64,000 nt of DNA from sequence record NC_052661.1, one strand, 5' to 3'. This document shows positions 4,079 through 64,000 of this stretch, in pieces (the first letter of the stretch is position 1; every line of letters begins with the position of its first letter). This DNA is from Escherichia phage ukendt. The position numbers and the translations under genes were made by a program. The notes beneath the pieces are model-generated. The model ran no database searches and was not told the DNA's origin. It saw only the letters and a list, made by a program, of their open reading frames with translations.

Positions 4079-4672
4079 TTACACCTTAAAAGCGAAATGC
4101 GTGGTCGTGGCTTCAAAATCAGGGCCAGATAAACTTGCACTGAAATCTGAAATATTTGTAATTAAAAAGCTTTTATACATACCTAACACAGCCACGCTTT
4201 CAATATCTTCTACTAACATTTCAATCATGTTAGAAACATGGCTGAACGTATAGTTTTGTTTTTTGATGGTGTAGAAAGAAAGACTCCCACCTGCTGTATA
4301 AGATACCTCTTCAAAATCTTTAATCGTATATTGTGTGCCATCAGTAAAGAAAATGGTAGCTTTATTAGTAGCACGTTTCTTGTTTTTTGGTCCTTTTTTA
4401 CGTTTACTGCGAGTAGGCAAACCGTTTGGAAATACTGTAGCTACAAATTCTTCAGGAGAAACCTCCTTACCGAAATCATAACCGTAAGAAACAGCGTCTA
4501 TAAACTCGTCGTCTTCATTTTTAAAATAATGAAAATAGGGCCAATTTGAGAGATTATCGAGCATCTTATGCTCATCCACAGCAGAGAACGTATCCCTCAA
4601 AGCACGTGTGATTTGCAAAGCATTAGGCAAACTTTTAACACCTGTAATGGAAGTACGAATAGAAATTGTCAT
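4079..4672 (-). CDS. hypothetical protein
   Basis: 197 aa ORF with basic patch RSKRKKGPKNKKR. Confidence 0.5.
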   Translation of the reverse strand: MTISIRTSITGVKSLPNALQITRALRDTFSAVDEHKMLDNLSNWPYFHYFKNEDDEFIDAVSYGYDFGKEVSPEEFVATVFPNGLPTRSKRKKGPKNKKRATNKATIFFTDGTQYTIKDFEEVSYTAGGSLSFYTIKKQNYTFSHVSNMIEMLVEDIESVAVLGMYKSFLITNISDFSASLSGPDFEATTTHFAFKV

Positions 4673-4686
4673 TGTTTTTCTCCTTA

Positions 4687-5124
4687 TTAACGTCGCTTGC
4701 TACGAGATGAACTCTTTTTACTTAAAGGGCTATTGTAAGATTTACGAGTTGTATAGCTACTATTTGTTTTAAAAGTTTGTCTCGGATTTTCATAAGTTTT
4801 TATCTCTTGTTTAGGCTTACCATAAAAATTAGTTTTCGGTTTAGGTGTATTATAATGCTTATTAATAATCGTTCTGTTATCGTTATAATCCCCACTGTTA
4901 CGATTACTACCACCACTCATCATATGCCCTAACAACATACCTGTAGCAAACTCACCAACACCGCTACTACTAGAACCGCCACCATTGTTGATAATAGTTG
5001 TATCTCCGTCAGATCCTTGTTGAGCGTATTGTTGAGGAGGTTGTTGGTATTGTGCAGGATTTGTTTCATCCTCGCAAGCTGTTAAAAAGATACAACCAAT
5101 TAAAATCAGGGCTAGTTTTTTCAT
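4687..5124 (-). CDS. lipoprotein, Gly/Ser-rich
   Basis: Start placed at internal Met giving signal peptide MKKLALILIGCIFLTAC with lipobox; RBS GAGGAA upstream. Confidence 0.55.
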   Translation of the reverse strand: MKKLALILIGCIFLTACEDETNPAQYQQPPQQYAQQGSDGDTTIINNGGGSSSSGVGEFATGMLLGHMMSGGSNRNSGDYNDNRTIINKHYNTPKPKTNFYGKPKQEIKTYENPRQTFKTNSSYTTRKSYNSPLSKKSSSRSKRR

Positions 5125-6988: not shown

Positions 6989-7462
6989 TTAAAGTTTATA
7001 AATAGTCACATCGTGACCTGTTTTTACTAAAGTTTCTTCAATCATCACTTGGATGATAGCCCAATTACCTCCAGCATATCCAGCGCCAATCATAGGTAAG
7101 CCGATCTTACATTTTTGGTCACGGAGAAGCAAATCATTAGCCATAGCTATTAGTGCATCGTAAAGTGCATCATAGTCCAACTGACGACCTTTAGCATTGT
7201 ATCCGTAACGGTATTGTCCGTATAGATTATATACCAAAGGGTCTGATTGTTCGTCTGGCAACCCTAAACTAAAAGAACCTAACTTACTTTGATCACCAGC
7301 CATTGTGTCTAAATCTGCCGCATATGCATAAGGGAATGCTCGTTTAATTTGCGGAGCAATTCCTGCTCCCATATTACACATACAATTGCAACAATGAGCA
7401 ATAACAGTTACTTCTCCTGCTTTAGCGGCATCAATAAGATTACCTGTTTTCATTTTAAGCAT
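6989..7462 (-). CDS. macro-domain protein (ADP-ribose binding/hydrolase)
   Basis: 157 aa; VIAHCCNCMCNMGAGIA and IGLPMIGAGYAGG match the two macro-domain Gly-rich loops. Confidence 0.6.
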   Translation of the reverse strand: MLKMKTGNLIDAAKAGEVTVIAHCCNCMCNMGAGIAPQIKRAFPYAYAADLDTMAGDQSKLGSFSLGLPDEQSDPLVYNLYGQYRYGYNAKGRQLDYDALYDALIAMANDLLLRDQKCKIGLPMIGAGYAGGNWAIIQVMIEETLVKTGHDVTIYKL

Positions 7463-7476
7463 TTTTTAGCTCCTTA

Positions 7477-8304
7477 TTACAGAATATGTTGTTTTGTGTA
7501 ACGATCCAAGAATTCAAAGTTTTCAGCATACTTTGAAATTCGGTTGTAACCTTCTCCCAAACATCCAAAGAAAAGTTGCTCTACATAGTAGTGTGGCAAT
7601 TGGCTAAGAATGATTTTGAAGTCTTCGTGATTTTGGCCCATAAGATACTTAATAGGACGAACAAGGCACTGTGCATCACGTTCTTCATTAATCATTTTAA
7701 CAAACGCTTCTGGTGTATTGATGTAGTTAAAATTCAGTTTAGCTTCAGTATCTGCTTGATTACCTTCATATTTTGCAAAATACAAGAAGTAAACATCATT
7801 TTTAACTTGATTTTCATCAAGAATCTCAATCAGTTTGTCTTCATGAGTTCCGGTGATATTTACATCATCAATGAACACAAGCTTCTTATCACCCCAGAAT
7901 TCTTTGTTGCAGTAGAATGTATCCCCATCAATAAGTTTCTTACGACTAGCTTTATCCAAGAAACCATAATCGTTGATATAGCTAACTTTACGATGAATAA
8001 TATCCAGTTCTGCTGAACGACCTTGATCATATTGTGCTTGCAACATATTAAAGTAATTAATAAAATGATCTGTCATCATTGTTGCAGCATTATGCACATG
8101 GTTATAAGGAGAAGGGATGATAACAAATTGTTCCCCAATATGTTTCATTGCCACTTGAGCAAAAAACTGAAGTGCCAATTCTTTACCCATACGACGCGCA
8201 GCCTGGTTACTACCAAATTTCAATTTTGAATAGTCTTTGATATCAAAAGTAGCAGTTTCCAGGTCATCAAATTTATTTGCAAAAATTTGAGTTTGATTAC
8301 GCAT
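7477..8304 (-). CDS. type I phosphoribosyltransferase-fold protein
   Basis: 275 aa; PRPP-binding loop KLVFIDDVNITGT. Confidence 0.5.
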   Translation of the reverse strand: MRNQTQIFANKFDDLETATFDIKDYSKLKFGSNQAARRMGKELALQFFAQVAMKHIGEQFVIIPSPYNHVHNAATMMTDHFINYFNMLQAQYDQGRSAELDIIHRKVSYINDYGFLDKASRKKLIDGDTFYCNKEFWGDKKLVFIDDVNITGTHEDKLIEILDENQVKNDVYFLYFAKYEGNQADTEAKLNFNYINTPEAFVKMINEERDAQCLVRPIKYLMGQNHEDFKIILSQLPHYYVEQLFFGCLGEGYNRISKYAENFEFLDRYTKQHIL

Positions 8305-8953
8305 TTACAATTTCTCCTCTTTTAAGTTTCTCTAGTAAGTCGTTAGGGTTCTTAATATGACAGAAGTTAAATCCTAAGTCAACACATTTTCCATCATATT
8401 CTTCACTATCGCCTACGTGCAATACTTCGTGCCCTAACAGAGGGACCGGAGAATACGTGAGCGTGCGAGCAAAGAATCGCGGATCTGGTTTACAAAGTAA
8501 AGCTTCATCCGAGAAATGGGTGAACTCAAAACAATTCCAACTATCAAACTTACAAGCACGACGCAGGATATCCCCTGATATGAAGTTGGTATTGCTCTTA
8601 ATACTCAAATCATAACGCCCCGAAAGATACAGCAAGTACATCGGCAGATCCACGGCTACGTGTGGTGGAAACTTAAGGAACCACTGTTCACACTCGAAAC
8701 GAAGCTTTGCAGACTTCCAAGGCGTTATCCCAAGTTCAGAACCAAGTCTTTCCCAAGCGTATGCTGCACACTCGGCTTTGCCTTGAAGTGCTGCATTATC
8801 CAGTTCCTTTTTGATCTTCTTATAAGCTGCTCTTGCTTCCACTTCCGTAATATCTCCATATTTTGCGATAGTCCAGGCTCGCATGTCTGCGTAATTGGAG
8901 TTTGCTGTGATCAGTGTGTTCCATACATCAAAAGAGATATGTTTAATAGTCAT
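8297..8953 (-). CDS. HAD-superfamily hydrolase
   Basis: 218 aa; N-terminal FDVWNTL (DxD-type) and C-terminal HVGDS motifs. Confidence 0.5.
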   Translation of the reverse strand: MTIKHISFDVWNTLITANSNYADMRAWTIAKYGDITEVEARAAYKKIKKELDNAALQGKAECAAYAWERLGSELGITPWKSAKLRFECEQWFLKFPPHVAVDLPMYLLYLSGRYDLSIKSNTNFISGDILRRACKFDSWNCFEFTHFSDEALLCKPDPRFFARTLTYSPVPLLGHEVLHVGDSEEYDGKCVDLGFNFCHIKNPNDLLEKLKRGEIVNA

Positions 8954-16820: not shown

Positions 16821-17364
16821 TTATTTTGTGTTGACCTTATTTCGCATTAACCTGTGGGATACAGAGTTGCGAGATCTGTTTAGAACCTTACCAATCCCTG
16901 CATGACTATACCCTTCACTATTTAACTTTTCAAGAATCTGGTCTTCTTCCTCTGTCCAGTAGCGGCGTTTAGCTTGTCTATCATCCACACCATACATGAT
17001 AGGTTGCTTTACATCCATCACTTTTAGCAATCTGACAGCCTCTTCCGCTTTCTCTTTTTTTGAAACGGAGATAAGGGATTAAATTCTCAAGCAATCTTAT
17101 CACACTTTCTCTGCTGCTAACATTGATATTATACATCAAATTATCATATTTTTCAGCCCAAGCTACGCGCGATGTGAAAGAGACAGTATATCCATAACTT
17201 TCCAACTCTTTAGCCAAATCGGTCATTTCTTCTGCCGATCTCTCGTGTTGTGTAAGGTTTACTGTGTAGGAGTCTGAAGTCTCCCTGTTTCTGCTTATAA
17301 TAGACCCATCACAATCTATGCAACCTGCGTAGTAAGCATAAAACAGTTGTTCTTTTATGTCCAC
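16821..17364 (-). pseudogene. LAGLIDADG homing endonuclease, split by a frameshift at an A7 run
   Basis: Upstream ORF carries YYAGCIDCDGSI (LAGLIDADG-like); the downstream frame opens at the A7 run 17055-17061 and encodes an HTH-like tail. Confidence 0.45.
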
Positions 17365-28515: not shown

Positions 28516-28713
28516 ATGGCAACATTGCACATTGTGGCGAAAGCTGGACAAATAAACGTGGTAGTAAACGGTTTTACTGAGTTCAGTCATCCCCAGGATG
28601 ATCATGAAACGGTTTTATCTTTCATTGATTCACTGTTAGAAATGGGAGTAATTACAGAAGACCAGCACGCTACAAAATGCAAACGCGTTAATCAGATTGC
28701 AGGAATAGAATAA
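28516..28713 (+). CDS. cassette small protein
   Basis: 65 aa; own promoter-hairpin module; GGAG RBS. Confidence 0.5.
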   Translation: MATLHIVAKAGQINVVVNGFTEFSHPQDDHETVLSFIDSLLEMGVITEDQHATKCKRVNQIAGIE

Positions 28714-28720
28714 AAAGTAT

Positions 28721-28783
28721 TGACAACAACCAACAACCTGATAAGATGTATCACATAGGGCGGCGGAATGGTCCAGCCGCTCA
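28721..28783 (+). promoter_or_regulatory. cassette promoter + 5' hairpin module
   Basis: TTGACA, 16 nt, TAAGAT, then ACATAGGGCGGCGGAATGGTCCAGCCGC hairpin. Confidence 0.55.
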
Positions 28784-28805
28784 CAACAGAAGAGAGATTA
28801 TAATC

Positions 28806-29078
28806 ATGGCATCATATAGCGCAACAATGATCGTAGCTGGCACCACTGGTAAACCTATGAGCGGTGGCGGATCTTTCGCAAATATCAACATTGACGGGCG
28901 TTTATCCCTGGACGCAGCGATCACCGTGGCGCGGGAAACATTTAAGAAAGAATGTAAATTCAATAAACAAGATTATCTCGGTTTTGCTATTGAAAAAACC
29001 GCGCGTTTTGTTGATTATAAAAGCCCAAAAATGGTTGATACTACACTAAAAGCGCAAGATGTAGCGTTTTTGCTTTAA
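28806..29078 (+). CDS. cassette small protein
   Basis: 90 aa; promoter-hairpin module; start refined to 28806. Confidence 0.5.
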   Translation: MASYSATMIVAGTTGKPMSGGGSFANINIDGRLSLDAAITVARETFKKECKFNKQDYLGFAIEKTARFVDYKSPKMVDTTLKAQDVAFLL

Positions 29079-54618: not shown

Positions 54619-55227
54619 ATGGAAGAGAAGATTTGGGATGGTAAAGATCCTTTAGAAGTGGGACATGTAGCACGTGTCAAAAAATCTACTACAGGCCCTG
54701 GTTTTTCTGGTTTGTATCATATACCAGAAGAGGGTCAGCACGTTACAATTTTGGCTCGTGACAAACAAAACGGATCAACACCTGTGTGGATTGTTCGTTG
54801 GTATGACAAAGATCTTAACATTTGCTTGTCACCTATTATGGCTCATTTGCTGGAAGCCCCTTGCTCTGAAGAAGCTCTCATTTTTGTTTCGGCTTTTCAG
54901 AAAGCCACAGGTTTAACATTAGATGCAAAAGATGTGCAAAAAGCATTTGACATTATTCAGGAAGACAACGATACTACATCTAACGACGAACTGGTTGAAG
55001 TTACAATCTTATCTTCAGCAGATATTCGAGAGATTGATAATTGTGATTTTCCAATCACATTTAAAATGTCACAGAAAGACGTGCAGTCATCTGGAAGTTG
55101 TTTTGGTATACCTCGTTGGTTTTTTGATTCTATCAAAAATTCTACTACAGAGGGATCAGATTATGATCAAGATGACATGCTTTGGTTCTTAAAAAACCGA
55201 GAGATTGTTCTCTCACCACTTAAGTAA
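54619..55227 (+). CDS. hypothetical protein
   Basis: 202 aa; RBS AGGAGG. Confidence 0.5.
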   Translation: MEEKIWDGKDPLEVGHVARVKKSTTGPGFSGLYHIPEEGQHVTILARDKQNGSTPVWIVRWYDKDLNICLSPIMAHLLEAPCSEEALIFVSAFQKATGLTLDAKDVQKAFDIIQEDNDTTSNDELVEVTILSSADIREIDNCDFPITFKMSQKDVQSSGSCFGIPRWFFDSIKNSTTEGSDYDQDDMLWFLKNREIVLSPLK

Positions 55228-55236
55228 GGAGAAATA

Positions 55237-55338
55237 ATGGTTTCATTTATCGTAGGTGTAGTTGTAGGCTATCTTATTAACAAATATCAAGACGTTATCA
55301 CGGCAAAAGTAAAAGACATTTTAGACTCATCTAAATAA
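55237..55338 (+). CDS. small hydrophobic peptide
   Basis: 33 aa ORF not in track; RBS AAGGAGA. Confidence 0.3.
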   Translation: MVSFIVGVVVGYLINKYQDVITAKVKDILDSSK

Positions 55339-55390
55339 TCTATCAAAGCTGCATCTTCAATAGGTGCAGCCTTTTAAAAGGAGATACGGC

Positions 55391-55564
55391 ATGACTAAAC
55401 GCACTGATTTTAAATGTATGCATTGTGGGAAATCTTTTGGGGATCATCAAGCTCGCACATTCAATTGTCCACGTAAAGGTCGCGGAAATTTTAAAGGTTT
55501 TAATCCCGCACATGTTTATTCTCCAGATTACGATAAACCAGAAGAAGAAAAATTTGTTATTTAA
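55391..55564 (+). CDS. zinc-finger small protein
   Basis: Start refined to ATG 55391; CMHCG...NCPRKG. Confidence 0.45.
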   Translation: MTKRTDFKCMHCGKSFGDHQARTFNCPRKGRGNFKGFNPAHVYSPDYDKPEEEKFVI

Positions 55565-55576
55565 TAAGGAGGTAAT

Positions 55577-55858
55577 ATGGAACTCGTTCAAGAACTGTAT
55601 AATGCTTTAGGAGCAAAAGGAAAAGATTGGCCCGAACATGCGCTTATTGCTATAAGAGACTCCGATGGTGAGATTAAGTTTTCAAGCGTAAGTAAAGAGC
55701 ACATTGTACAAACAAAACTGGGTATTTATATGCGTGGAACTTATTGCTTATTCAACACCAGAATGGTAGAAGCCCCTGTTATCGAGGATGGAACAAAAGG
55801 TTGCCCCACAATCGTAACAAAAGCTGAATATGAGAAGTTTTTCTACGCTAAGGCTTGA
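55577..55858 (+). CDS. hypothetical protein
   Basis: 93 aa; followed by terminator. Confidence 0.5.
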   Translation: MELVQELYNALGAKGKDWPEHALIAIRDSDGEIKFSSVSKEHIVQTKLGIYMRGTYCLFNTRMVEAPVIEDGTKGCPTIVTKAEYEKFFYAKA

Positions 55859-55902
55859 CACAGAAACAATACTATAGGATAGTGATTCTATCGTAGCAAT
55901 AG

Positions 55903-55925
55903 AACCCGCTTCGGCGGGTTTTTTC
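55903..55925 (+). terminator. rho-independent terminator
   Basis: AACCCGC-TTCG-GCGGGTT followed by TTTTC. Confidence 0.6.
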
Positions 55926-55949
55926 ATATCTGTAGCAATAGGAGGTCGT

Positions 55950-56180
55950 GTGTTAAATAAAATCGAAGAAGGTTGTATGGCATTTTTGGTAGATAACCCG
56001 TTTCCGTTTATGGTTAAGATCCATGTAGGAGAGTATTTAGGTAATGACGAATGGGATTGTAGTATCAATAGCGAAATGCACTACTACCAACCAACAATAC
56101 TTAAGACGGATCAAATGGCGCGTATTACAGTAGAGGATGAATTGATCATTGAGTTATACGAGAGAGCACTGCACAAATAA
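55950..56180 (+). CDS. hypothetical protein
   Basis: 76 aa; last gene of plus block. Confidence 0.45.
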   Translation: MLNKIEEGCMAFLVDNPFPFMVKIHVGEYLGNDEWDCSINSEMHYYQPTILKTDQMARITVEDELIIELYERALHK

Positions 56181-56221
56181 GCTAGAACCCACCTAAATCG
56201 AACAGAGACGCTCTAAAATAG

Positions 56222-56250
56222 AAAAGGCACCCACTTGGGTGCCTTTGTTT
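56222..56250. terminator. bidirectional rho-independent terminator at the convergent junction
   Basis: AGGCACCCA...TGGGTGCCT hairpin flanked by an A-run upstream and a T-run downstream. Confidence 0.6.
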
Positions 56251-56522
56251 TATTCTTCGTTAGATTGCGTTTCAGATGCGTTAAATTCGGTTTCAGTACA
56301 ACTTGCTAGGTAACTTATATTTTGCATCACTACAACTACAGGTGTTTGAAGTTTATCTTCTAGCCCCGCAGCTACTTGAGCCAAGGCATTATCAATATTT
56401 GATTTCCTAACACCTGTTCCATGTCCTGTTGCCAAGTAAAGATTACCTTCCCCTTTTTGTGTAGCATTAGCAAAGTAGTAAACGTAATGTGCAAGGTAGT
56501 AATCACGGATTTCTTCAGTCAT
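56250..56522 (-). CDS. hypothetical protein
   Basis: 90 aa ORF between two terminators. Confidence 0.45.
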   Translation of the reverse strand: MTEEIRDYYLAHYVYYFANATQKGEGNLYLATGHGTGVRKSNIDNALAQVAAGLEDKLQTPVVVVMQNISYLASCTETEFNASETQSNEE

Positions 56523-56539
56523 TTTATTCTCCTAATAAG

Positions 56540-56562
56540 AAAGGGGCCGAAGCCCCTTGAGT
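56540..56562 (-). terminator. rho-independent terminator after the Sir2 gene
   Basis: AAGGGGC-CGAA-GCCCCTT hairpin. Confidence 0.45.
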
Positions 56563-56565
56563 GGT

Positions 56566-57366
56566 TTATTTGTTTAAATGGTCTTCAACCATTTTGATAA
56601 AGCCTTCATCACTGAAGACTGTTCCTGCTTTCTCTCGGTAGACAAGCACTCCACGTTCTTCGTAGAGAGTTTGTTCTACAAAATTCAAACCTGGGTTAAC
56701 TACAACCATCTTAACCCCAATATTCAGGGCAGGGAAGAGTTCCCAGTTGAAGTTGATTACTTGGTTAGAGCAGCCTACAACGATAACCATATCTTGTGAT
56801 GTTAGTTGATCCAGTTTGTGATACATGTCTGTGTAGAGCGGTGCATTCTCACCAAAAAACACCACATTAGGCTTCACATATTTGTAATCGTCTACATCAA
56901 TAGCTGCGTAACCCACATCTTTGATAATTTTGTTATCAACAACAACTTCTGGCAAGAAACCATGAACGTGCAATATTTCTTCTCTATCGATTCCAGCGCG
57001 TTCTAATAGATCGTCAACGTTAGTAGTGATGTTAATAATCCTTTCTGCACCGTATTTTTCGAACCATTCTCCAATCTGAAGATGTGCTGGATTCGGGTCA
57101 ACTTTCTCTAATTCCACGCGACGTTTATTGTAGAAGTCGTGAGTTTTACGGTAGAGGTTATATCCTTCCACATCTAAGCCACCCATAGCATCAGGAATAC
57201 CCTGTTCTTGCTGATAACCGTCACGGAAGTTGAAAATGTCACAGACTTCTGTCAAATCGTATTCATCCCATAATGCCTTTCCAGAATCTGTTTCTGTGCG
57301 AAATGTTTGGATTCCGCTGTCAGCACTTAGTCCCGCACCACTAATAAAATATACACGTCTTGGCAT
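56566..57366 (-). CDS. Sir2-family (sirtuin-like) NAD-dependent protein
   Basis: 266 aa; FISGAGLSADSGIQTFR, HG, NVVFFGEN and VVGCSN motifs; no obvious zinc-ribbon Cys4. Confidence 0.6.
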   Translation of the reverse strand: MPRRVYFISGAGLSADSGIQTFRTETDSGKALWDEYDLTEVCDIFNFRDGYQQEQGIPDAMGGLDVEGYNLYRKTHDFYNKRRVELEKVDPNPAHLQIGEWFEKYGAERIINITTNVDDLLERAGIDREEILHVHGFLPEVVVDNKIIKDVGYAAIDVDDYKYVKPNVVFFGENAPLYTDMYHKLDQLTSQDMVIVVGCSNQVINFNWELFPALNIGVKMVVVNPGLNFVEQTLYEERGVLVYREKAGTVFSDEGFIKMVEDHLNK

Positions 57367-57839
57367 TATTCGTCCTCCTCAAATGGATCATAAGAATCAT
57401 ATTCGTAAGTATCATCTTCTGAAAATTCTACTTCAAAATAAATATCAAACTCTGCAAATAGACAGAGGATGTTAGACATGCTATAATAATTATCGTAGGC
57501 AGATTCAGCTTCATAATAAACATAAAGCAAATGGTTAGCCTTATCATCTTCCAAATATTTCCCGTCTGCATAAGCATAATCCGCATATGCTTTACCTGCA
57601 TCTTCTACAAAGGAACGATCAAGCAGAGTAGGAAAGGGTTTCTCTTTTTCTTTTAGTTTGCTCACCAACCAATGTGCAATCTCACTCCAGTCTGCATCCA
57701 TTCCACTGAAACAACTGGCACCTTCACCAAATTCTGCTTCTCCTAAGTCCCCTTTAATAGTAACTACAGTAGAGCTATTGTAACCGCAATCTTCACAGTC
57801 TGAATAACTATTGTGGACATTAATTTCTACTTGAAACAT
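57366..57839 (-). CDS. highly acidic protein
   Basis: 157 aa Asp/Glu/Tyr-rich; stop overlaps Sir2 start. Confidence 0.5.
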   Translation of the reverse strand: MFQVEINVHNSYSDCEDCGYNSSTVVTIKGDLGEAEFGEGASCFSGMDADWSEIAHWLVSKLKEKEKPFPTLLDRSFVEDAGKAYADYAYADGKYLEDDKANHLLYVYYEAESAYDNYYSMSNILCLFAEFDIYFEVEFSEDDTYEYDSYDPFEEDE

Positions 57840-57854
57840 ATTCCCTCCTATAAA

Positions 57855-57880
57855 GAAAAGCCCCCTGAAACAGGAGGCTT
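57855..57880 (-). terminator. rho-independent terminator
   Basis: AGCCTCCTG-ttt-CAGGGGGCT hairpin with one mismatch, then TTTTCTTTAT on the minus strand. Confidence 0.45.
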
Positions 57881-57896
57881 TGTTCAGATGTTGGCA

Positions 57897-58550
57897 CTAT
57901 ACCAGACTTTGTAGGTATTTGTCAAGGGCTTCTTGATCACCTTGGCAAACATAGCAACGGAAGTCTTGAGACGAAGGTTGTTTATTTTCATCCCAATCCC
58001 AATAAACATTACCTTTATAACGTGAGCCAGGAAACTCAAAAGAGGCTGTATGTGTAATGTATCCTGGGCCACCAGTGAAATCACAGAATGAGAATTGAGG
58101 GTATGCCGCCTTTACTGCCTCAATAAACCAAGCTTTACGATCTAATGCTTCATTGATGCTATATGCATGTCTCTCCATTTCTTCCCAAGTTTTCCAGACA
58201 CTTCTCTCATCAGGAGAAAAGACAAGCCATTCTGGAAGGTAGAGAGTGTCATAGTAATCATCATATTCGATCTCGGAGGCGCACGAAGCTGACTCCTCCA
58301 GTTTTGAGTAATCAAAAGCCGAATATACCCACCAACCATCTTCCAGTAAGGCTTTGATAGGGACGAAGCCTTTATCAACATATTGATCGAATTGTTTGAC
58401 ACGGTGGCTTGTGCAGTCTTCAAACTCACATTCTAAACGATAGGCACCTTTTCGACGAGCCTCAAGACCGTGTGTACTGAAAATAACAACACTTCCTTCA
58501 CCATCGTTACGATCTACTTGATAAGCAACTACTGGTTTTGAATTTGACAT
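57897..58550 (-). CDS. hypothetical protein
   Basis: 217 aa ORF. Confidence 0.5.
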   Translation of the reverse strand: MSNSKPVVAYQVDRNDGEGSVVIFSTHGLEARRKGAYRLECEFEDCTSHRVKQFDQYVDKGFVPIKALLEDGWWVYSAFDYSKLEESASCASEIEYDDYYDTLYLPEWLVFSPDERSVWKTWEEMERHAYSINEALDRKAWFIEAVKAAYPQFSFCDFTGGPGYITHTASFEFPGSRYKGNVYWDWDENKQPSSQDFRCYVCQGDQEALDKYLQSLV

Positions 58551-59275
58551 TATTTCTCCTTATCTAGAAGATTGTTAGACAAAAACACGGCACGAGCAAA
58601 ACCACGTGCGGTTAGGGATCTAAGTTGTTTTGTTTTTGCACTAGCTCCACCTAAGCTTTTCCAACCCCAGAAGCAGCCTATATGATCTACTGGTTTCTTC
58701 ACTGGTTGAACAAAACCATTGCCGTGCCAAATACAAGTTTTCTTTGTATACCCATCACGGGTAGGCATTTTAGGATGAAAGCTCCCTTCCTCTTCAAACA
58801 AATACCCACCATACTCATAAGGATCAAAGTAAAAATCGGGTTTACGCCATAAGGTTGAAAGTTTACCTACTGGGTTCTCAATCATCCAAGGAACATTATA
58901 TTTGTTACCCAAAGCTTCCACTACACGAATATTAGCTAAAGCTTCATCCAATTCCTCTGTGCTACGTTCGTGTTTGCTACCACTACCTGCTAACATAGTG
59001 CAAGGTGGAAATCCAAAAATAATATCGGGTTTAGGTATCCCATGATCTTCAGGGTTGAATGTAGAATCTATCCAAGCATTCACATAGGTTATGTTTGGGT
59101 GCTCCATCCTAACCTCGTATTTACCGTGATCCCCTTCATCAGCGTTTACACAAAAACACTTGTGACCTGCTTCGGCATAACGTAACACCATGATCCCAGA
59201 TCCGTCAAACATAGACAAAACTGTTTTACTCATTACCCCTCCATTCAAGACAAGCCATAACTTTACGCCAATCAC
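58550..59275 (-). CDS. C5-cytosine methyltransferase-like protein
   Basis: LSMFDGSGI (motif I-like), FGFPPCT (PC motif-like), IENPVG (ENV-like); short, no clear target-recognition domain. Confidence 0.4.
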   Translation of the reverse strand: MIGVKLWLVLNGGVMSKTVLSMFDGSGIMVLRYAEAGHKCFCVNADEGDHGKYEVRMEHPNITYVNAWIDSTFNPEDHGIPKPDIIFGFPPCTMLAGSGSKHERSTEELDEALANIRVVEALGNKYNVPWMIENPVGKLSTLWRKPDFYFDPYEYGGYLFEEEGSFHPKMPTRDGYTKKTCIWHGNGFVQPVKKPVDHIGCFWGWKSLGGASAKTKQLRSLTARGFARAVFLSNNLLDKEK

Positions 59276-59639
59276 TTTCTGTAAGAAAAATCTCGTTTGC
59301 TTTCTTCCACAAATCTAAATCGTGAAGGGTTGGAATACGATATGTTAGTTCACAGAATCTATGCTCTTCTTCTGTAATATAACCAAAATGCAGAGCCACA
59401 TCGTGAAACCAACACCAACCATGCATCTCTCGAACAACATGGTCATGCTGAGACATTGTTTTATGCCGTAAACCTAACCAACAAGGAACAGATACTTTAG
59501 TAGTCTTTAATCTGTGATCAACAATATTAGAGTATTCAATAATAGCTGTCAGTTTCAATCGTGCTTTTTCTAAATCCTCGTGGGTCACTTTGAAATAACT
59601 TTCTGAAAGATATCCACACATATTAATAACCTCCTTCAA
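59226..59639 (-). CDS. hypothetical protein
   Basis: 137 aa ORF. Confidence 0.45.
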   Translation of the reverse strand: MKEVINMCGYLSESYFKVTHEDLEKARLKLTAIIEYSNIVDHRLKTTKVSVPCWLGLRHKTMSQHDHVVREMHGWCWFHDVALHFGYITEEEHRFCELTYRIPTLHDLDLWKKANEIFLTESDWRKVMACLEWRGNE

Positions 59640-60564
59640 AAGGCTTAACTACATGTTGATTAGCTTTAAAACGTTCAACATAGTCGTTTTCACCCATGTT
59701 TTCATATAGCTTAGTAACAACATAAAAGTTTTCCCAAGCATATTCCCTAAACCAACCACTAGTGATGGATGTGCAGACTTTAGATAAAGCCATTATAAAA
59801 CTTTGCTTAGGGGTTGGACCTCCGATCTCTCCACCGAAAGGAATTTGTGAACGTTCCAAAGCCAAAACACACGCTTCTTCATAAACACCTAACAGGCGCA
59901 CATGTTTTGGTTGAGCAAAAAACTTTTCTTTGCTGGTCATAACTTCACTTCCATCCTTCATATAAGATTTATATGCTGGAGCATCCATTACTGCGATTGC
60001 TTCATGAATAGAGTCATGATCATAAACATACGGAACCTCATCACCTTTAAAGAAGTCTTTACTTCTCACGTTTAAGTTTGGATGAGAGTAAGTGTATGTT
60101 TCTTTCTCACGCAACTCATAAATACTCTTAAGATTTTCTGGGATCTTTGCGCCTAGTGATCGCATGAAATGAATATCTTTCATAGTTTTAAAGAAGTGAG
60201 GACTATCCTTTTTAAAACGATGACTCATTTTAAGAAGGTAGAGCACATCTAAAGGAGCAACAACGTGTCCAGCGTAAGTTCGACGAATATCATCAGAGTC
60301 TTCACAATAACTAATCAAAGCTTCTGTGCTATCTCCTTGAGAAGCAATATCGTATTCCAAGTGTGCACCAGCTATCATTTTGACATGGCCCTTGTTCCCT
60401 TTACGCTCTACAAGTTCAACAAACTCATCTTGAGAGAACATTTTTGATAATTCTTCCCACTCTTGTTCTGTACAGAGATAATCTAAATCTACACAAGGGC
60501 GATACAAGTCTTTTCCCATGTCCATAGCATGAATTTGTAATGCACGGCTACCAATTAACACCAT
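59623..60564 (-). CDS. hypothetical protein (possible nucleotidyltransferase fold)
   Basis: 313 aa; N-terminal GS...DLD pattern; sigma70-like promoter upstream. Confidence 0.45.
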   Translation of the reverse strand: MVLIGSRALQIHAMDMGKDLYRPCVDLDYLCTEQEWEELSKMFSQDEFVELVERKGNKGHVKMIAGAHLEYDIASQGDSTEALISYCEDSDDIRRTYAGHVVAPLDVLYLLKMSHRFKKDSPHFFKTMKDIHFMRSLGAKIPENLKSIYELREKETYTYSHPNLNVRSKDFFKGDEVPYVYDHDSIHEAIAVMDAPAYKSYMKDGSEVMTSKEKFFAQPKHVRLLGVYEEACVLALERSQIPFGGEIGGPTPKQSFIMALSKVCTSITSGWFREYAWENFYVVTKLYENMGENDYVERFKANQHVVKPFEGGY

Positions 60565-60589
60565 AATATTTCTCCTCTATTGGTTGATA

Positions 60590-60618
60590 GGTTAAGTTTA
60601 TCAAGCTTCCAGATTTCT
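60590..60618 (-). promoter_or_regulatory. sigma70-like promoter
   Basis: On the minus strand: TTGACA, 17 nt, TAAACT, upstream of the gene starting at 60564. Confidence 0.45.
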
Positions 60619-60622
60619 GTCA

Positions 60623-60650
60623 ATAAAAAACCCGCCGAAGCGGGTTATTA
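60623..60650 (-). terminator. rho-independent terminator
   Basis: AACCCGC-TTCG-GCGGGTT followed by TTTTTTATTG on the minus strand. Confidence 0.6.
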
Positions 60651-60654
60651 TTTA

Positions 60655-60927
60655 CTAACACATTGAGGAAGAAGAGATCCAAACACCTCTTGTGGTTAAA
60701 CCATTTTCATCCAACTCTACACCATAATCTTCACAAATGAAATCAATATAGTGATCTGCGGCTGGCGTTCCTGTAGGGTAATAAGTTTCTCCGTTACCGT
60801 AGTCACCTATCCAAGCTTGTTCCTGAAACTGTTCACAAAGTTCTTCAATCTCCTTACGAAACTTTCTTTGTGCTTGTTCCATCTCTTTAACTTTCTTTTT
60901 TATCAGCAGTTCGCCTTCAGACTCCAC
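60655..60927 (-). CDS. small protein, C-terminal W-x-SSS-C family
   Basis: 90 aa; ends GVWISSSSMC. Confidence 0.5.
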   Translation of the reverse strand: MESEGELLIKKKVKEMEQAQRKFRKEIEELCEQFQEQAWIGDYGNGETYYPTGTPAADHYIDFICEDYGVELDENGLTTRGVWISSSSMC

Positions 60928-60936
60928 AATCTCTCC

Positions 60937-61197
60937 TTAACAGCTACTACTGTGCCAAACGCCTTGAGAATTAACGACGAAACCATCATCACCTTCACCA
61001 TAACAAGAAGAGGATTGCCAATCTTCAAAACAGATTGCGTCATTTTCTAAACTAAGACCAAAACCAGCATCTTCAGCTTCTTTTGTAAGTTCGTCCACTA
61101 AAGCCATAATAGCTTGGGCTTTTTCAGTTAATTCTTCAACATTACGATCACTCATTAGTATTTCTCCTCTGGTTGGAAAACTGAACGACAAGCCCAC
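60937..61197 (-). CDS. small protein, C-terminal W-x-SSS-C family
   Basis: 86 aa; ends GVWHSSSC. Confidence 0.5.
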   Translation of the reverse strand: MGLSFSFPTRGEILMSDRNVEELTEKAQAIMALVDELTKEAEDAGFGLSLENDAICFEDWQSSSCYGEGDDGFVVNSQGVWHSSSC

Positions 61198-61469
61198 ATA
61201 CTAGCTTCTTTTAAATGTTTAATAGCACAACGGATTTGATCAATACGTTCGTATGCAAGATCTAATTCTTTTTCTGTGCCGTCAAAAGACCCATGATATG
61301 CTTCACAATACTCTTCCTCTAAAGCTTTGAAGATTAAACCTAAACGCTCTTCTGCATCTTTAATAGCGTTAACCTTGCCAATCTTATCGTCAGTATGCGC
61401 CTTATAACCTTTGATATCTTCGATTCCCACTTTACCTCCTATTAACAACTTAAAGAAGATGGGTGCCAA
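61155..61469 (-). CDS. hypothetical protein
   Basis: 104 aa ORF. Confidence 0.45.
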   Translation of the reverse strand: MAPIFFKLLIGGKVGIEDIKGYKAHTDDKIGKVNAIKDAEERLGLIFKALEEEYCEAYHGSFDGTEKELDLAYERIDQIRCAIKHLKEASMWACRSVFQPEEKY

Positions 61470-61639
61470 TTTGTTCCAGTATTCTCATTTTCATCTTCTG
61501 GATCATAATAGCCACCCATCCCATATTCAGGGGAGAAACGGAAACCTTTACCAGTCTCATCTGCTAACTGCTCTGCTTCCGCTAAAGCCTCATAAGCTGC
61601 TTTTACGGCTTCTTCTACTGTTTTAAACTTGGTCGTCAT
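61442..61639 (-). CDS. small protein, C-terminal W-x-SS-x-SC family
   Basis: 65 aa; ends NWHPSSLSC. Confidence 0.45.
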   Translation of the reverse strand: MTTKFKTVEEAVKAAYEALAEAEQLADETGKGFRFSPEYGMGGYYDPEDENENTGTNWHPSSLSC

Positions 61640-61913
61640 AAAATTTCTCCTCTCCTAAAGACATGTTGACATGAAATGCACGATATGTAAATTCGTTGTC
61701 CGTTGTGTTTGAATAAAACTCAAATTGAACAACACCGTCTTGAGAAGACAGATACATGCCAATTTGAACTGTTCCTTCTGGTACCAGGTAAGCATACTCT
61801 GGACGTAGTGTTACATTGTAAAAATAAAGTTCCCCAACACCCATTTCATCCCAAGCTTCCCAAGCGGTAACGAAGTTACTTTCAAAACTTGTTACTGATC
61901 TGAACTCTGCCAT
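61623..61913 (-). CDS. hypothetical protein
   Basis: 96 aa ORF. Confidence 0.5.
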   Translation of the reverse strand: MAEFRSVTSFESNFVTAWEAWDEMGVGELYFYNVTLRPEYAYLVPEGTVQIGMYLSSQDGVVQFEFYSNTTDNEFTYRAFHVNMSLGEEKFYDDQV

Positions 61914-62404
61914 AAAACCTCCTCAATCTTGTAGTTTGACTCCATCTCCAACACATTTCCACGAACGTCTCTCCGAAGAAAGGCATAAGCTTTATTAGGT
62001 ATTGTAGACTCATATTTAACCATATCTGGCACAGCAAAAGATACTACTACTCCTGCTGGGCTTCTGTCAAGAGCCTTATTAATATTTCTAAGGATATCGT
62101 TAGCCAAGATTTCTGCCAATTCTCCAAGAACGGTTTCGGTTATATCTTTATATCCCATTAAGTATTTGTTGATATCTTTCATCTCTGTATTGTTCAGAGT
62201 ATAATCCAAAGGATAGAAATTCAAAGCGGAGTCACTTTTATGTGTCCACATGAAATGCACCCGATCCGAGCAGAATCGTAACCCTCTTTGAAGAATATCT
62301 TCTACAACAGGCAGAATTTCTTTTGTCACATCATTAACCATGTTGTAATCTAAGATTTCTGCCAAGTTTGTTCTTTGTTCACCACGTTTACGTTTAGGAA
62401 TCAC
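61892..62404 (-). CDS. hypothetical protein
   Basis: 170 aa ORF. Confidence 0.5.
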   Translation of the reverse strand: MIPKRKRGEQRTNLAEILDYNMVNDVTKEILPVVEDILQRGLRFCSDRVHFMWTHKSDSALNFYPLDYTLNNTEMKDINKYLMGYKDITETVLGELAEILANDILRNINKALDRSPAGVVVSFAVPDMVKYESTIPNKAYAFLRRDVRGNVLEMESNYKIEEVLWQSSDQ

Positions 62405-62999
62405 TTGTTATTGCCCTCATTACCAAAGGTCGTAGAAAATCGTAAATCTCTTGTTTTGTTTTCCCACGAATGTTTAAACAAGGAACATTATTGGCTTTAG
62501 CTATCTTCCAAGCCGTAGCTGTTCCGCCTTTTGCATCCCCATGTTTATCAGTATTAGCACAAGCCAACAAGAAACACGATGGAGCAGGATTCTCCAAATC
62601 TCTGCCTAACACCTGATGCACATTACGTTGGTGCAATTTTCTAGCACCCTGCTTAAGCTTTTCATAAGCTGGGTGAACATCTTTGATCCATTGCACAGAG
62701 ATAGCATAGTTCATTGTATCTGGTTTTGCAAGAACAATAACATCACCTGGAATCTGATTACCTTTGAAATTTTCCCAAGGAACATAAATCTCCTTGTTAG
62801 TAGGATTTTCAGACTCTTGGACACCTGTTTCAAAAGCAGAATCACTACCCTCTGCCTTCCCAGACCTTAATTTAAACCCAAGGTTTGAAAGCCATTTCCC
62901 TATGCCTACCATCAAAGCCCACTCTTCTTCAGATATATCTCTACTTCCAACTCCCGTATAGAACAGTTCTGCCATAATCACCTCAACAAGTAATTTCAA
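62394..62999 (-). CDS. DprA/Smf-like Rossmann (SLOG superfamily) protein
   Basis: 201 aa; GVGSRDIS, LRSGKAEGSDSAFETG and GGTATAWKIAKANNVP resemble DprA nucleotide-binding loops. Confidence 0.4.
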   Translation of the reverse strand: MKLLVEVIMAELFYTGVGSRDISEEEWALMVGIGKWLSNLGFKLRSGKAEGSDSAFETGVQESENPTNKEIYVPWENFKGNQIPGDVIVLAKPDTMNYAISVQWIKDVHPAYEKLKQGARKLHQRNVHQVLGRDLENPAPSCFLLACANTDKHGDAKGGTATAWKIAKANNVPCLNIRGKTKQEIYDFLRPLVMRAITSDS

Positions 63000-63291
63000 A
63001 AGGTGTATAGGGTTCCGTATTTCTCATGATCCAAGGACTGCTAGGATTGCTCGGATCATAAGGACCAAAAGGTTTTATGGTAGGTTGTGTTTCTTTCTTC
63101 TGAATCTCTTCAAAAATACGACGAAGTTCAGAATATTCTTGATCCACCATAAGATTCGGTGCATCCGATTCTACAGTTTGCAGGTTATCTTCCTTAAAAA
63201 CAATCTCACGAACAAGATTAACATCTTCTGTTTCTAAGATAACTTCTTTACGGATATTACCTACACTTTGAATAATTGTAATCTTATACAT
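62983..63291 (-). CDS. hypothetical protein
   Basis: 102 aa ORF. Confidence 0.5.
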   Translation of the reverse strand: MYKITIIQSVGNIRKEVILETEDVNLVREIVFKEDNLQTVESDAPNLMVDQEYSELRRIFEEIQKKETQPTIKPFGPYDPSNPSSPWIMRNTEPYTPFEITC

Positions 63292-64000
63292 TAATCCTCC
63301 TCAAGAGTTGAATAAAATTGAAGACCACCGTCCATATCGAAATAAGCAAATGTTAAGTTATTATTGAACACAGATCCAGTATCCATATAAACACGATTCG
63401 CATTGATAATAGGTGTTTTTACATAAGAGTGTCCATGGAACACATAGTCCACACCCATCACAACAGGAAGTTTCATTCCCTCTTTAGCACAGTCCACCAT
63501 ATCTCTGTCCCACATAAGTGCTTCAGCAAAACGGTTTTCCTGTGTTTTTGTCATCTTCAAAGTGTATTCTGGAATATCTGTTACAGGGAGATATTCCAAA
63601 GAAGATGGATACCCACCATGAATAAACGCAAGTTTCATGCCTCTGTAGTTAACAATGAGAACAACAGGTAAATCTTCTGTCATCATTGCTAAGGCTGTAG
63701 CTCCTTCTTCACCACATTCTTCAAGGACTGTATATCCTCCATTTTGATACCAACACTCGAAGTAGCTACGATCTCCTTCCAGCATACCTTTAATCATCAT
63801 GTCTTCATGATTTCCACGAATAGCGTAGCGATTGTGTTTACGAGTAAATTCTAAAACACAACGAAAGTTTTGCTTTCCACGGTCAGTAAGATCTCCTAAA
63901 GATACAACTACATCTGTATCTCGGATACCTAACTTTGCCTTTCCTTTTTCATACAAATTATAACAACCGTGTAGATCTCCAATTATAAAAAGATCTTGAT
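63291..64000 (-). CDS. Ser/Thr protein phosphatase (calcineurin-like metallophosphoesterase), partial
   Basis: GDLTDRG and GNHE motifs; frame stays open past 63956 and encodes GDLHG near the window end, so the true start lies beyond 64000. Confidence 0.6.
   Translation of the reverse strand, partial: QDLFIIGDLHGCYNLYEKGKAKLGIRDTDVVVSLGDLTDRGKQNFRCVLEFTRKHNRYAIRGNHEDMMIKGMLEGDRSYFECWYQNGGYTVLEECGEEGATALAMMTEDLPVVLIVNYRGMKLAFIHGGYPSSLEYLPVTDIPEYTLKMTKTQENRFAEALMWDRDMVDCAKEGMKLPVVMGVDYVFHGHSYVKTPIINANRVYMDTGSVFNNNLTFAYFDMDGGLQFYSTLEED

Follow-up and report, generated by a model that had tools for sequence, protein, structure and literature searches.

A stand-alone SLOG-fold protein of Escherichia phage ukendt and its possible part in NAD-centred counter-defence

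Escherichia phage ukendt encodes a stand-alone protein of the SLOG fold that may bind or process an ADP-ribose derivative in NAD-centred counter-defence, a reading to which we give a probability of roughly 45%. The gene lies in a stretch of 64,000 nucleotides of the phage genome (NC_052661.1), referred to here as the window. This NAD/ADP-ribose reading is the best supported of those considered, because in other phages members of the same family are fused to NADAR or DUF4326 domains or lie near NARP1 and Macro genes. The ligand class, catalysis beyond binding and the anti-defence role are things that we infer. As proposed, the conserved pocket would bind a NAD+-derived phosphoribosyl nucleotide, namely an ADP-ribose derivative; the protein would then hydrolyse a bond at ribose C1'', or otherwise process the ligand, to yield ADPR or a related product; and it would work alongside Macro, NADAR, DUF4326 and NARP1 enzymes where these are present, as an accessory factor by which phages counter bacterial immunity based on NAD+/ADP-ribose.

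Phage ukendt, an E. coli myovirus of about 150 kb, belongs to the phAPEC8-like genus Phapecoctavirus, and phages KKP 3954 and nieznany are 98% identical to the window over positions 55000-64000. An open reading frame on the minus strand at 62394..62999 opens with TTG and would give 201 residues in the program's list. The true start is most likely the ATG at 62975, giving a gene at 62394..62975 (minus strand) and a protein of 193 residues. This start is preferred because a well-spaced Shine-Dalgarno sequence, GAGGTG (62981..62986, minus strand), stands 5 nt 5' of the ATG, because the stop codon of the upstream gene falls inside that ribosome-binding site, and because an identical 582-nt CDS is annotated in the RefSeq genome of phage nieznany. 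The upstream gene (62983..63291, minus strand; 102 residues, PHROG 15301) has no functional annotation, and its TGA stop (62983-62985) is overlapped by the Shine-Dalgarno sequence; homologues of it stand directly 5' of the SLOG gene in 3 lineages, as judged by neighbour clustering. Downstream, a gene of 170 residues (61892..62404, minus strand; PHROG 8569), likewise without functional annotation and without a match in a Pfam search, begins at a GTG that overlaps the SLOG stop by 11 nt. The overlap of stop and ribosome-binding site on one side and the 11-nt overlap on the other indicate that the SLOG gene is translationally coupled on both sides. It forms part of a long minus-strand gene array, in which the second gene 5' of it (63291..63956, minus strand) encodes a calcineurin-like metallophosphatase, annotated as a NinI-like Ser/Thr phosphatase (Pfam Metallophos, E=1.2e-9).

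The protein matches PHROG 768 over its full length (E=2e-62), and this family, equivalent to VOG4585 and exemplified by nieznany gp059 and Phi92_gp047, is its own. The preliminary observation is confirmed: the reading frame is a real gene. Searched with tblastn, about 50,700 phage records contained the family in 1,441, from many hosts and lineages, and proteins 100% identical to the one in the window are encoded by other Phapecoctavirus genomes. When 1.84 billion representatives were searched with a profile, 5,946 clusters matched at E<=1e-3, with stand-alone proteins of 170-210 residues making up nearly all of them, and BFVD models of family members superpose at a TM score of about 0.8. Searching with the single protein gave no match in NCBIfam and nothing relevant among PDB sequences; its pI and net charge were uninformative. 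Databases, RefSeq included, label the family a "DprA-like DNA recombination-mediator protein", a name founded on remote similarity and nothing else.

An AlphaFold2 model of the protein (pLDDT 95.8) is a 193-residue single domain with the SLOG Rossmannoid fold, and on this model and its structural matches the fold can be regarded as established. Foldseek places HpDprA first, and among PDB fold matches DprA, Moco-carrier and LOG proteins lie at much the same distance; DprA is thus the nearest family by sequence and by structure no closer than other SLOG families. The preliminary description had called the product a stand-alone SLOG protein with Rossmann loops resembling those of DprA; the fold prediction does fall inside the SLOG/DprA group, and by sequence the DprA Rossmann domain is among the closest relatives of the protein.

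Conservation was counted in the family alignment (A1) and over 50 independent IMG/VR lineages with less than 70% mutual identity. Eleven residues are present in all 50 lineages: G39, A41, G43, D45, H101, R117, Q121, G124, G150, G151 and T152. W67 and N118 follow in 48 of 50, R12 in 46 of 48 and H115 in 45 of 50. These residues fall within a series of motifs: GxGSR after strand 1 (G8, G10, S11, R12), RSGxAxGxD after strand 2 (R37 to D45), E..PW after strand 3 (E62, P66, W67), an HP motif (H101), a HxRNxxQ helix with the pattern HxRNxxQxxG (H115, R117, N118, Q121, G124), the single residue S133, and GGTxT (G150, G151, T152, T154). Judging from the topology of the model, the GxGSR, RSGxAxGxD, E..PW and GGTxT loops at the C-terminal ends of the strands would form the canonical Rossmannoid ligand crevice. 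Across members that are less than 40% identical, about 15 polar residues are near-invariant, among them two histidines, an aspartate, an asparagine and a glutamine.

Although nearly all members stand alone, 17 of the top 150 family representatives exceed 230 residues, and the fused members retain the complete pocket signature. NADAR is the commonest identified fusion partner (P0142 and P0236), and DUF4326 is fused in P0211. Polyvalent proteins of about 1,480 residues (P0121 and P0123) combine two PHROG 768-type SLOG copies with YAcAr and NADAR domains; LDcluster4 also scores on the second SLOG copy. In P0218 the partner is the A1S_2505 family (PHROG 2072 / NCBIfam NF049995), which has no assigned function and which N4-like Ruegeria phages encode immediately 5' of the SLOG gene. 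This partner was considered as a Macro domain and the assignment was not adopted, the resemblance being faint (hhalign 26% probability; TARG1 E about 1, non-significant). A further fusion partner, PHROG 9995, has no functional annotation.

Genes were called in 84 loci, and their neighbours were clustered and counted over the 50 independent lineages. Within five genes of the SLOG gene, PhoH recurs in 6 lineages, the metallophosphatase family in 5, and Macro, Namat/NAMPT-like, methyltransferase, DnaB and RNR genes in 4 each; PhoH is also the commonest direct neighbour (6 lineages), mostly directly upstream. Within 8 kb, Macro genes are found in 6 of the 50 lineages, DUF4326 in 4 and NADAR in 2. 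In lineages 2, 3, 10, 15, 24 and 29, Adps and/or Namat share the strand of the SLOG gene and lie no more than 8 kb away from it; in lineage 11 they lie farther off, which makes 6-7 of 50 lineages. The order Adps-Namat-Macro-(1-2 small genes)-SLOG occurs in four lineages, Pakpunavirus and three others, and in lineage 29 the order is TK-SLOG-Adps-Namat-x-DUF4326, SLOG and Adps sharing 4 nt. NARP1 is carried by 4.3% of phage genomes (Osterman et al.). By our own estimate, in genomes of 90-150 kb chance alone would put NARP1 within 8 kb of the SLOG gene in well under one of 50 lineages, a comparison in which the clustering of auxiliary genes, a feature of large phage genomes, inflates the signal. 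About 35 of the 50 lineages have no NAD or ADP-ribose gene within 8 kb, which was counted against the ADP-ribose reading; other contexts of the SLOG gene comprise replication or nucleotide-metabolism genes.

Among an enzyme, a sponge and a ssDNA binder, an enzyme is the likelier candidate, because so many polar residues are invariant and because the fusion partners are enzymes. Two accessory proteins of the NARP1 pathway offer a model of the way in which the protein may act. The Macro protein Adpp of NARP1 operons is an ADPR-1P phosphatase, and RyDEP, a RyR-domain protein encoded inside the NARP1 operon, is a cADPR glycosidase that converts 2'/3'cADPR to ADPR, which then enters NARP1. Both occupy the same genomic niche as the SLOG gene, as an extra gene in or beside the Adps-Namat operon in some phages, whereas their folds are unrelated to that of the SLOG protein. 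A more specific proposal, tentative and on balance doubtful, is that PHROG 768 represents a third type of accessory enzyme in phage NAD+ reconstitution, a SLOG glycohydrolase that frees ADPR from a partner attached at C1''. Candidate substrates would be canonical or N7-cADPR, His-ADPR, other ADPR conjugates, or ADP-ribosylated bases in ssDNA. By its action an immune signal or lesion would be erased while ADPR was fed back into the Adps/Namat pathway; where NARP1 is missing, as in ukendt, the enzyme would work alone, erasing the signal or lesion as counter-defence.

Viral NAD+/ADPr systems have been surveyed before (Iyer, Burroughs, Anantharaman and Aravind, 2022; PMC9503650), and that survey reports SLOG domains in 7% of small phages, 19% of medium ones and 31% of jumbo phages. 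It also describes viral SLOG fusions to Macro, NADAR and DUF4326, and predicts that viral SLOGs either act as sensors of ADPr derivatives or break down signals of the cADPr type by attacking ribosyl N-glycosidic bonds. The SLOGs described there resemble PHROG 768 in standing alone, in occurring in medium-to-large phages and in having Macro, NADAR or DUF4326 fused or adjacent at the level of the family; in the window phage itself, no Macro, NADAR or DUF4326 gene adjoins the SLOG gene. They differ in that the survey places most viral SLOGs in a YpsA-like clade, whereas the PHROG 768 sequence matches only DprA and, weakly, LDcluster4. A tight linkage of SLOG genes to NARP1 operons was not found in the sections consulted.

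The gene annotation, the entry in the family catalogue and the prediction of an ADPr function for viral SLOGs were thus already known. Possibly new are the tight association of PHROG 768 with NARP1 and NARP1-AP operons and the evidence that the recombination-mediator label is poorly founded. As accessory genes of medium and large lytic phages go, PHROG 768 is one of the commoner, carried also by therapeutic Pseudomonas, Klebsiella and E. coli phages, and the label propagates on very thin evidence. If the protein does prove to be an enzyme acting on ADP-ribose derivatives, a SLOG-fold activity would join the phage toolkit against NAD immunity (Macro/Adpp, NADAR/AdfN, RyDEP and NARP1-3), and part of the host-range variation on strains with Thoeris, SIR2, RES or DarT-type defences would be explained. 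Family members within NARP1 operons provide a direct experimental handle.

The strongest alternative, itself rather unlikely, is that the protein is a DprA-like ssDNA binder that coats or protects phage ssDNA and passes it on to a recombinase, host RecA for example. For jumbo phages, DprA/Smf SLOG proteins have been suggested as possible ssDNA binders (Iyer et al., 2021), and SLOG genes do lie among replication genes in T5-like Vibrio phages and N4-like phages. DprA is also the only family with a sequence-level match, at residues 9-52 of the phage protein, and the top Foldseek match to HpDprA is on the same side. The Pfam match (PF02481) is sub-threshold, with E=0.073 and 12.7 bits against a cutoff of 29.6, although some family members reach 29.2 bits; against TIGR00732, members score 13-17 bits, the cutoff being 191. 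A search of the PDB with the family profile found DprA N-terminal matches only (RpDprA, E=0.019), and hhalign against E. coli Smf aligned 39 residues at 14% probability. Aligned motif by motif, the phage protein and E. coli Smf have GSR, SGxAxGxD, RN and (S/G)G(S/T)xxTA in common, and the SLOG Rossmannoid core is shared with bacterial DprA/Smf generally (PF02481, TIGR00732; PDB 4LJK, 3MAJ, 3UQZ).

The differences from DprA are equally clear. The phage protein lacks the SAM and winged-helix domains, and in an insert of 30-40 residues it has W67, H101 and H115 as invariant residues of its own; by comparison with E. coli Smf these three are specific to the PHROG 768 family. Beyond the last shared strand E. 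coli Smf continues with PGPIGNPGSEGPHWLIKQGAILV..., whereas the phage protein, on sequence comparison, ends there in a single helix (residues 174-191). In S. pneumoniae DprA (SpDprA) the missing segment holds the dimer and RecA-binding interface. The EVADES preprint makes the same point on the C-terminal DprA segment for ORF83, a phage SLOG protein discussed below.

The arginines that contact ssDNA are R52, R143 and R170 in HpDprA and R139, R234 and R261 in ShosA. In the motif alignment the first two of these contacts correspond to R12 (46 of 48 lineages) and R117 (50 of 50), and the third to K149 (27 of 50). In nucleotide-binding SLOG proteins the same positions bind phosphate, and so the conserved arginines fail to discriminate between DNA and nucleotide binding. 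That the two best-conserved arginines are at the same time DprA ssDNA contacts was counted against the ADP-ribose reading. No recombinase, SSB or annealing protein recurs beside the SLOG gene in the 50-lineage neighbourhoods, and none is annotated across the whole nieznany genome. Membership in DprA proper is not supported, because thresholds are failed, the profile alignment is short, the SAM and winged-helix domains and the Smf C-terminal segment are missing, and a recombination-gene context is lacking. A DprA-type recombination role is correspondingly weakened; the protein may still bind ssDNA.

A further reading, which we consider unlikely, is that the protein acts on ADP-ribosylated ssDNA, the product of DarT-type toxins, either removing the lesion itself or recruiting NADAR and Macro hydrolases by way of a DprA-like groove. 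In phages NADAR acts as a DNA ADP-ribosylglycohydrolase by which DarTG1 is overcome, and it is the partner most often identified in fusions; the conserved DprA-type contact arginines, the presence of two family copies with a NADAR domain inside the polyvalent proteins, and the TARG1-type Macro resemblance of the fused or adjacent A1S_2505 domain would all fit. That resemblance is non-significant, however, and the NARP1, DUF4326 and Adpp-type Macro settings concern soluble ADPR metabolites; a search for DarT-related evidence in the window phage found none.

The main idea of the preliminary description, a sponge, is improbable; without being a catalyst, it would sequester immune signals derived from ADPR, for instance 2'/3'cADPR or His-ADPR. 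To our knowledge, SLOG proteins are not found among the known sponges (Tad1, Tad2, Acb2, Sequestin, Lockin), and the PDB fold matches of the model include none of these five; the paper describing Sequestin and Lockin makes no mention of SLOG. The near-invariant polar residues, some 15 in number, are more typical of an active site, the NADAR and DUF4326 fusion partners are enzymes, and a place in or beside the NARP1 operon suggests that a product is handed on, not locked away.

Still less probable is a LOG/PpnN-like N-glycosidase that cleaves NMPs or dNMPs to the base and (deoxy)ribose-5-phosphate, thereby remodelling the nucleotide pool. LOG and PpnN proteins carry a catalytic glutamate in the motif PGGxGTxxE; the window protein instead reads K149-GGTATAW-K157 (KGGTATAWK), the column equivalent to the glutamate is variable across the family, and searches of the LOG families in Pfam and NCBIfam with the protein gave no match. 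The NADAR and DUF4326 fusions would also be left unexplained. With the LOG catalytic glutamate absent, no catalytic mechanism can be named for the putative ADP-ribose enzyme, a point counted against that reading. [quoted passage not shown]

Among related phage SLOGs, only ORF83 of Escherichia phage Dru_SM1 has a phenotype: when it is deleted, plating on AVAST type III is reduced. Located in Dru_SM1 (PP596835.1) at 28641-29033, it encodes 130 residues of the YAcAr/DUF2493 type (PF10686, E=1.6e-18) and carries the published R89, N90, T112 and D114. Its motif set of GxR, RxGxAxGxD, PW, RN and GGxGT is analogous to that of PHROG 768, and YAcAr and PHROG 768 domains co-occur in the polyvalent proteins. 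It is 60 residues shorter than the window SLOG and belongs to a different Pfam family, however, and its candidacy as a PHROG 768 member was rejected, ORF83 being a YAcAr protein. The PF10686 profile does not match the window SLOG at E<=1, and hhalign against ORF83 aligns only 18 residues, with no profile similarity beyond one motif; no homologue of ORF83 was found in phages 9g and Seurat. As a distant SLOG relative with the same motifs and a knock-out phenotype on AVAST type III, it was counted in favour of the ADP-ribose reading.

The Sir2-like gene of the window (56566..57366, minus strand; PHROG 2162; Pfam SIR2, E=1.4e-20) is separated from the SLOG gene by 5,028 bp. Two predicted intrinsic terminators on the minus strand lie between them. 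The first (60629..60646), with a 7-bp GC-rich stem and a T tract, is likely to mark the 3' end of the SLOG-containing transcription unit, and a promoter-like site (60623-60595) is found just downstream of it; the second (57857..57881) has a promoter-like site (57925-57896) just upstream. Of the 50 lineages, only 3, that of the window phage included, have a Sir2 gene 8 kb or less from the SLOG gene. The distance of about 5 kb is therefore no evidence of a link, the synteny being confined to few lineages and interrupted by the two predicted terminators: the proximity is lineage-specific synteny and no association, and the linkage of Sir2 to SLOG was rejected. Nor does the window protein resemble a ThsA-type sensor, in which SLOG is fused to an effector (SIR2, TM or Macro) and partnered by a TIR gene. 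The preliminary description had proposed a role in NAD or ADP-ribose signalling and had argued for it from the Sir2 neighbour; that role survives in spirit, by way of the fusions and of the NARP1 and Macro neighbourhoods in other phages, and the Sir2 gene falls away as its basis.

The window phage also encodes a Macro-domain protein (6989..7462, minus strand), about 55 kb from the SLOG gene. It scores narrowly above the Pfam Macro cutoff (E=6.9e-5; 23.2 bits, cutoff 22). Searches of the window phage for NARP1 genes and for DUF4326 found neither. The lack of NARP1, the 55-kb distance of the Macro gene and the want of functional annotation for the genes adjoining SLOG were counted against the ADP-ribose reading; on the other side were counted the presence of both Macro and Sir2 in this phage and, in its close relative nieznany, of a DUF4326 protein as well. 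In a jackhmmer comparison the window Macro protein matches, at E=1.7e-63, the very Macro cluster that adjoins SLOG and NARP1 in other phages.

In IMG/VR loci, the gene found most often immediately upstream of SLOG encodes a PhoH-like ATPase; this holds in six of the 50 lineages (lineages 1, 5, 9, 17, 35 and 39), as exemplified by the gene at position -1 of locus L029 (Pfam PhoH, E=1.9e-47). Phapecoctavirus has PhoH and SLOG in one gene array, with PhoH about 5 kb further upstream. One fused or adjacent partner of SLOG is the A1S_2505 family domain (NF049995, PHROG 2072), which bears the motif FVFGSNxxGxHGAGAA...GCGLAG. Some proteins carry this domain fused to SLOG, for instance P0218, where it covers residues ~175-316; in N4-like Ruegeria phages it is encoded by the gene directly upstream of SLOG (4615-5004 in locus L003). 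Its similarity to TARG1/OARD1-type Macro domains is faint (E about 1).

The gene immediately upstream of the SLOG gene in the window, 62983-63291 (-), encodes a product ending in ...PFEITC. A row of small acidic ORFs at 60655-61639 (-) shares similar C-terminal motifs with cysteine as the last residue, namely ...GVWISSSSMC (60655..60927, -), ...GVWHSSSC (60937..61197, -) and ...NWHPSSLSC (61442..61639, -); a related ORF of other loci ends in ...VQWRSSSYDC. These small Cys-ending ORFs may constitute one paralogous family. Past the terminator/promoter pair near 60.6 kb, the gene at 59623-60564 (-) comes first; it encodes a 313-aa DUF7277 + DUF7275 protein (E=1.6e-75; PHROG 2141). The gene at 58550-59275 (-) is annotated in relatives as a Dcm/DNA methyltransferase; a Pfam search with it gave no match at E<=0.01. 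Directly downstream of the Sir2 unit, a bidirectional terminator with a perfect 10-bp stem (56223-56246) separates convergent gene arrays.

Elsewhere in the window, genes for a HAD-like hydrolase (8297..8953, -), a ComF-like PRTase_3 (7477..8304, -; E=6e-42) and a Macro domain (6989..7462, -) are co-directional, spanning 6989-8953 (-). In the close relative nieznany, the counterpart of this cluster is directly followed by genes annotated as TerC-like and 'tellurite resistance'. Aravind's group has reportedly described Ter-associated PRTase/phosphatase metabolite systems, which the window cluster resembles. The cluster forms a second ADP-ribose- or nucleotide-related module of the phage.

The window phage and nieznany differ at a DUF4326 locus. 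The DUF4326 gene of nieznany, gp160, is mis-annotated as 'ribonucleotide reductase NrdA-like' and lies at the position matching window 16821-17364 (-), where the window phage carries a 545-bp replacement between flanks that are 96-99% identical to those of nieznany. Within this interval, a LAGLIDADG-like ORF (16981..17364, -; Pfam LAGLIDADG_3, E=5e-4) overlaps an HTH/Myb-like ORF (16821..17030, -). In this exchange, the ADP-ribose-linked DUF4326 gene appears to have been displaced by the insertion of a homing endonuclease.
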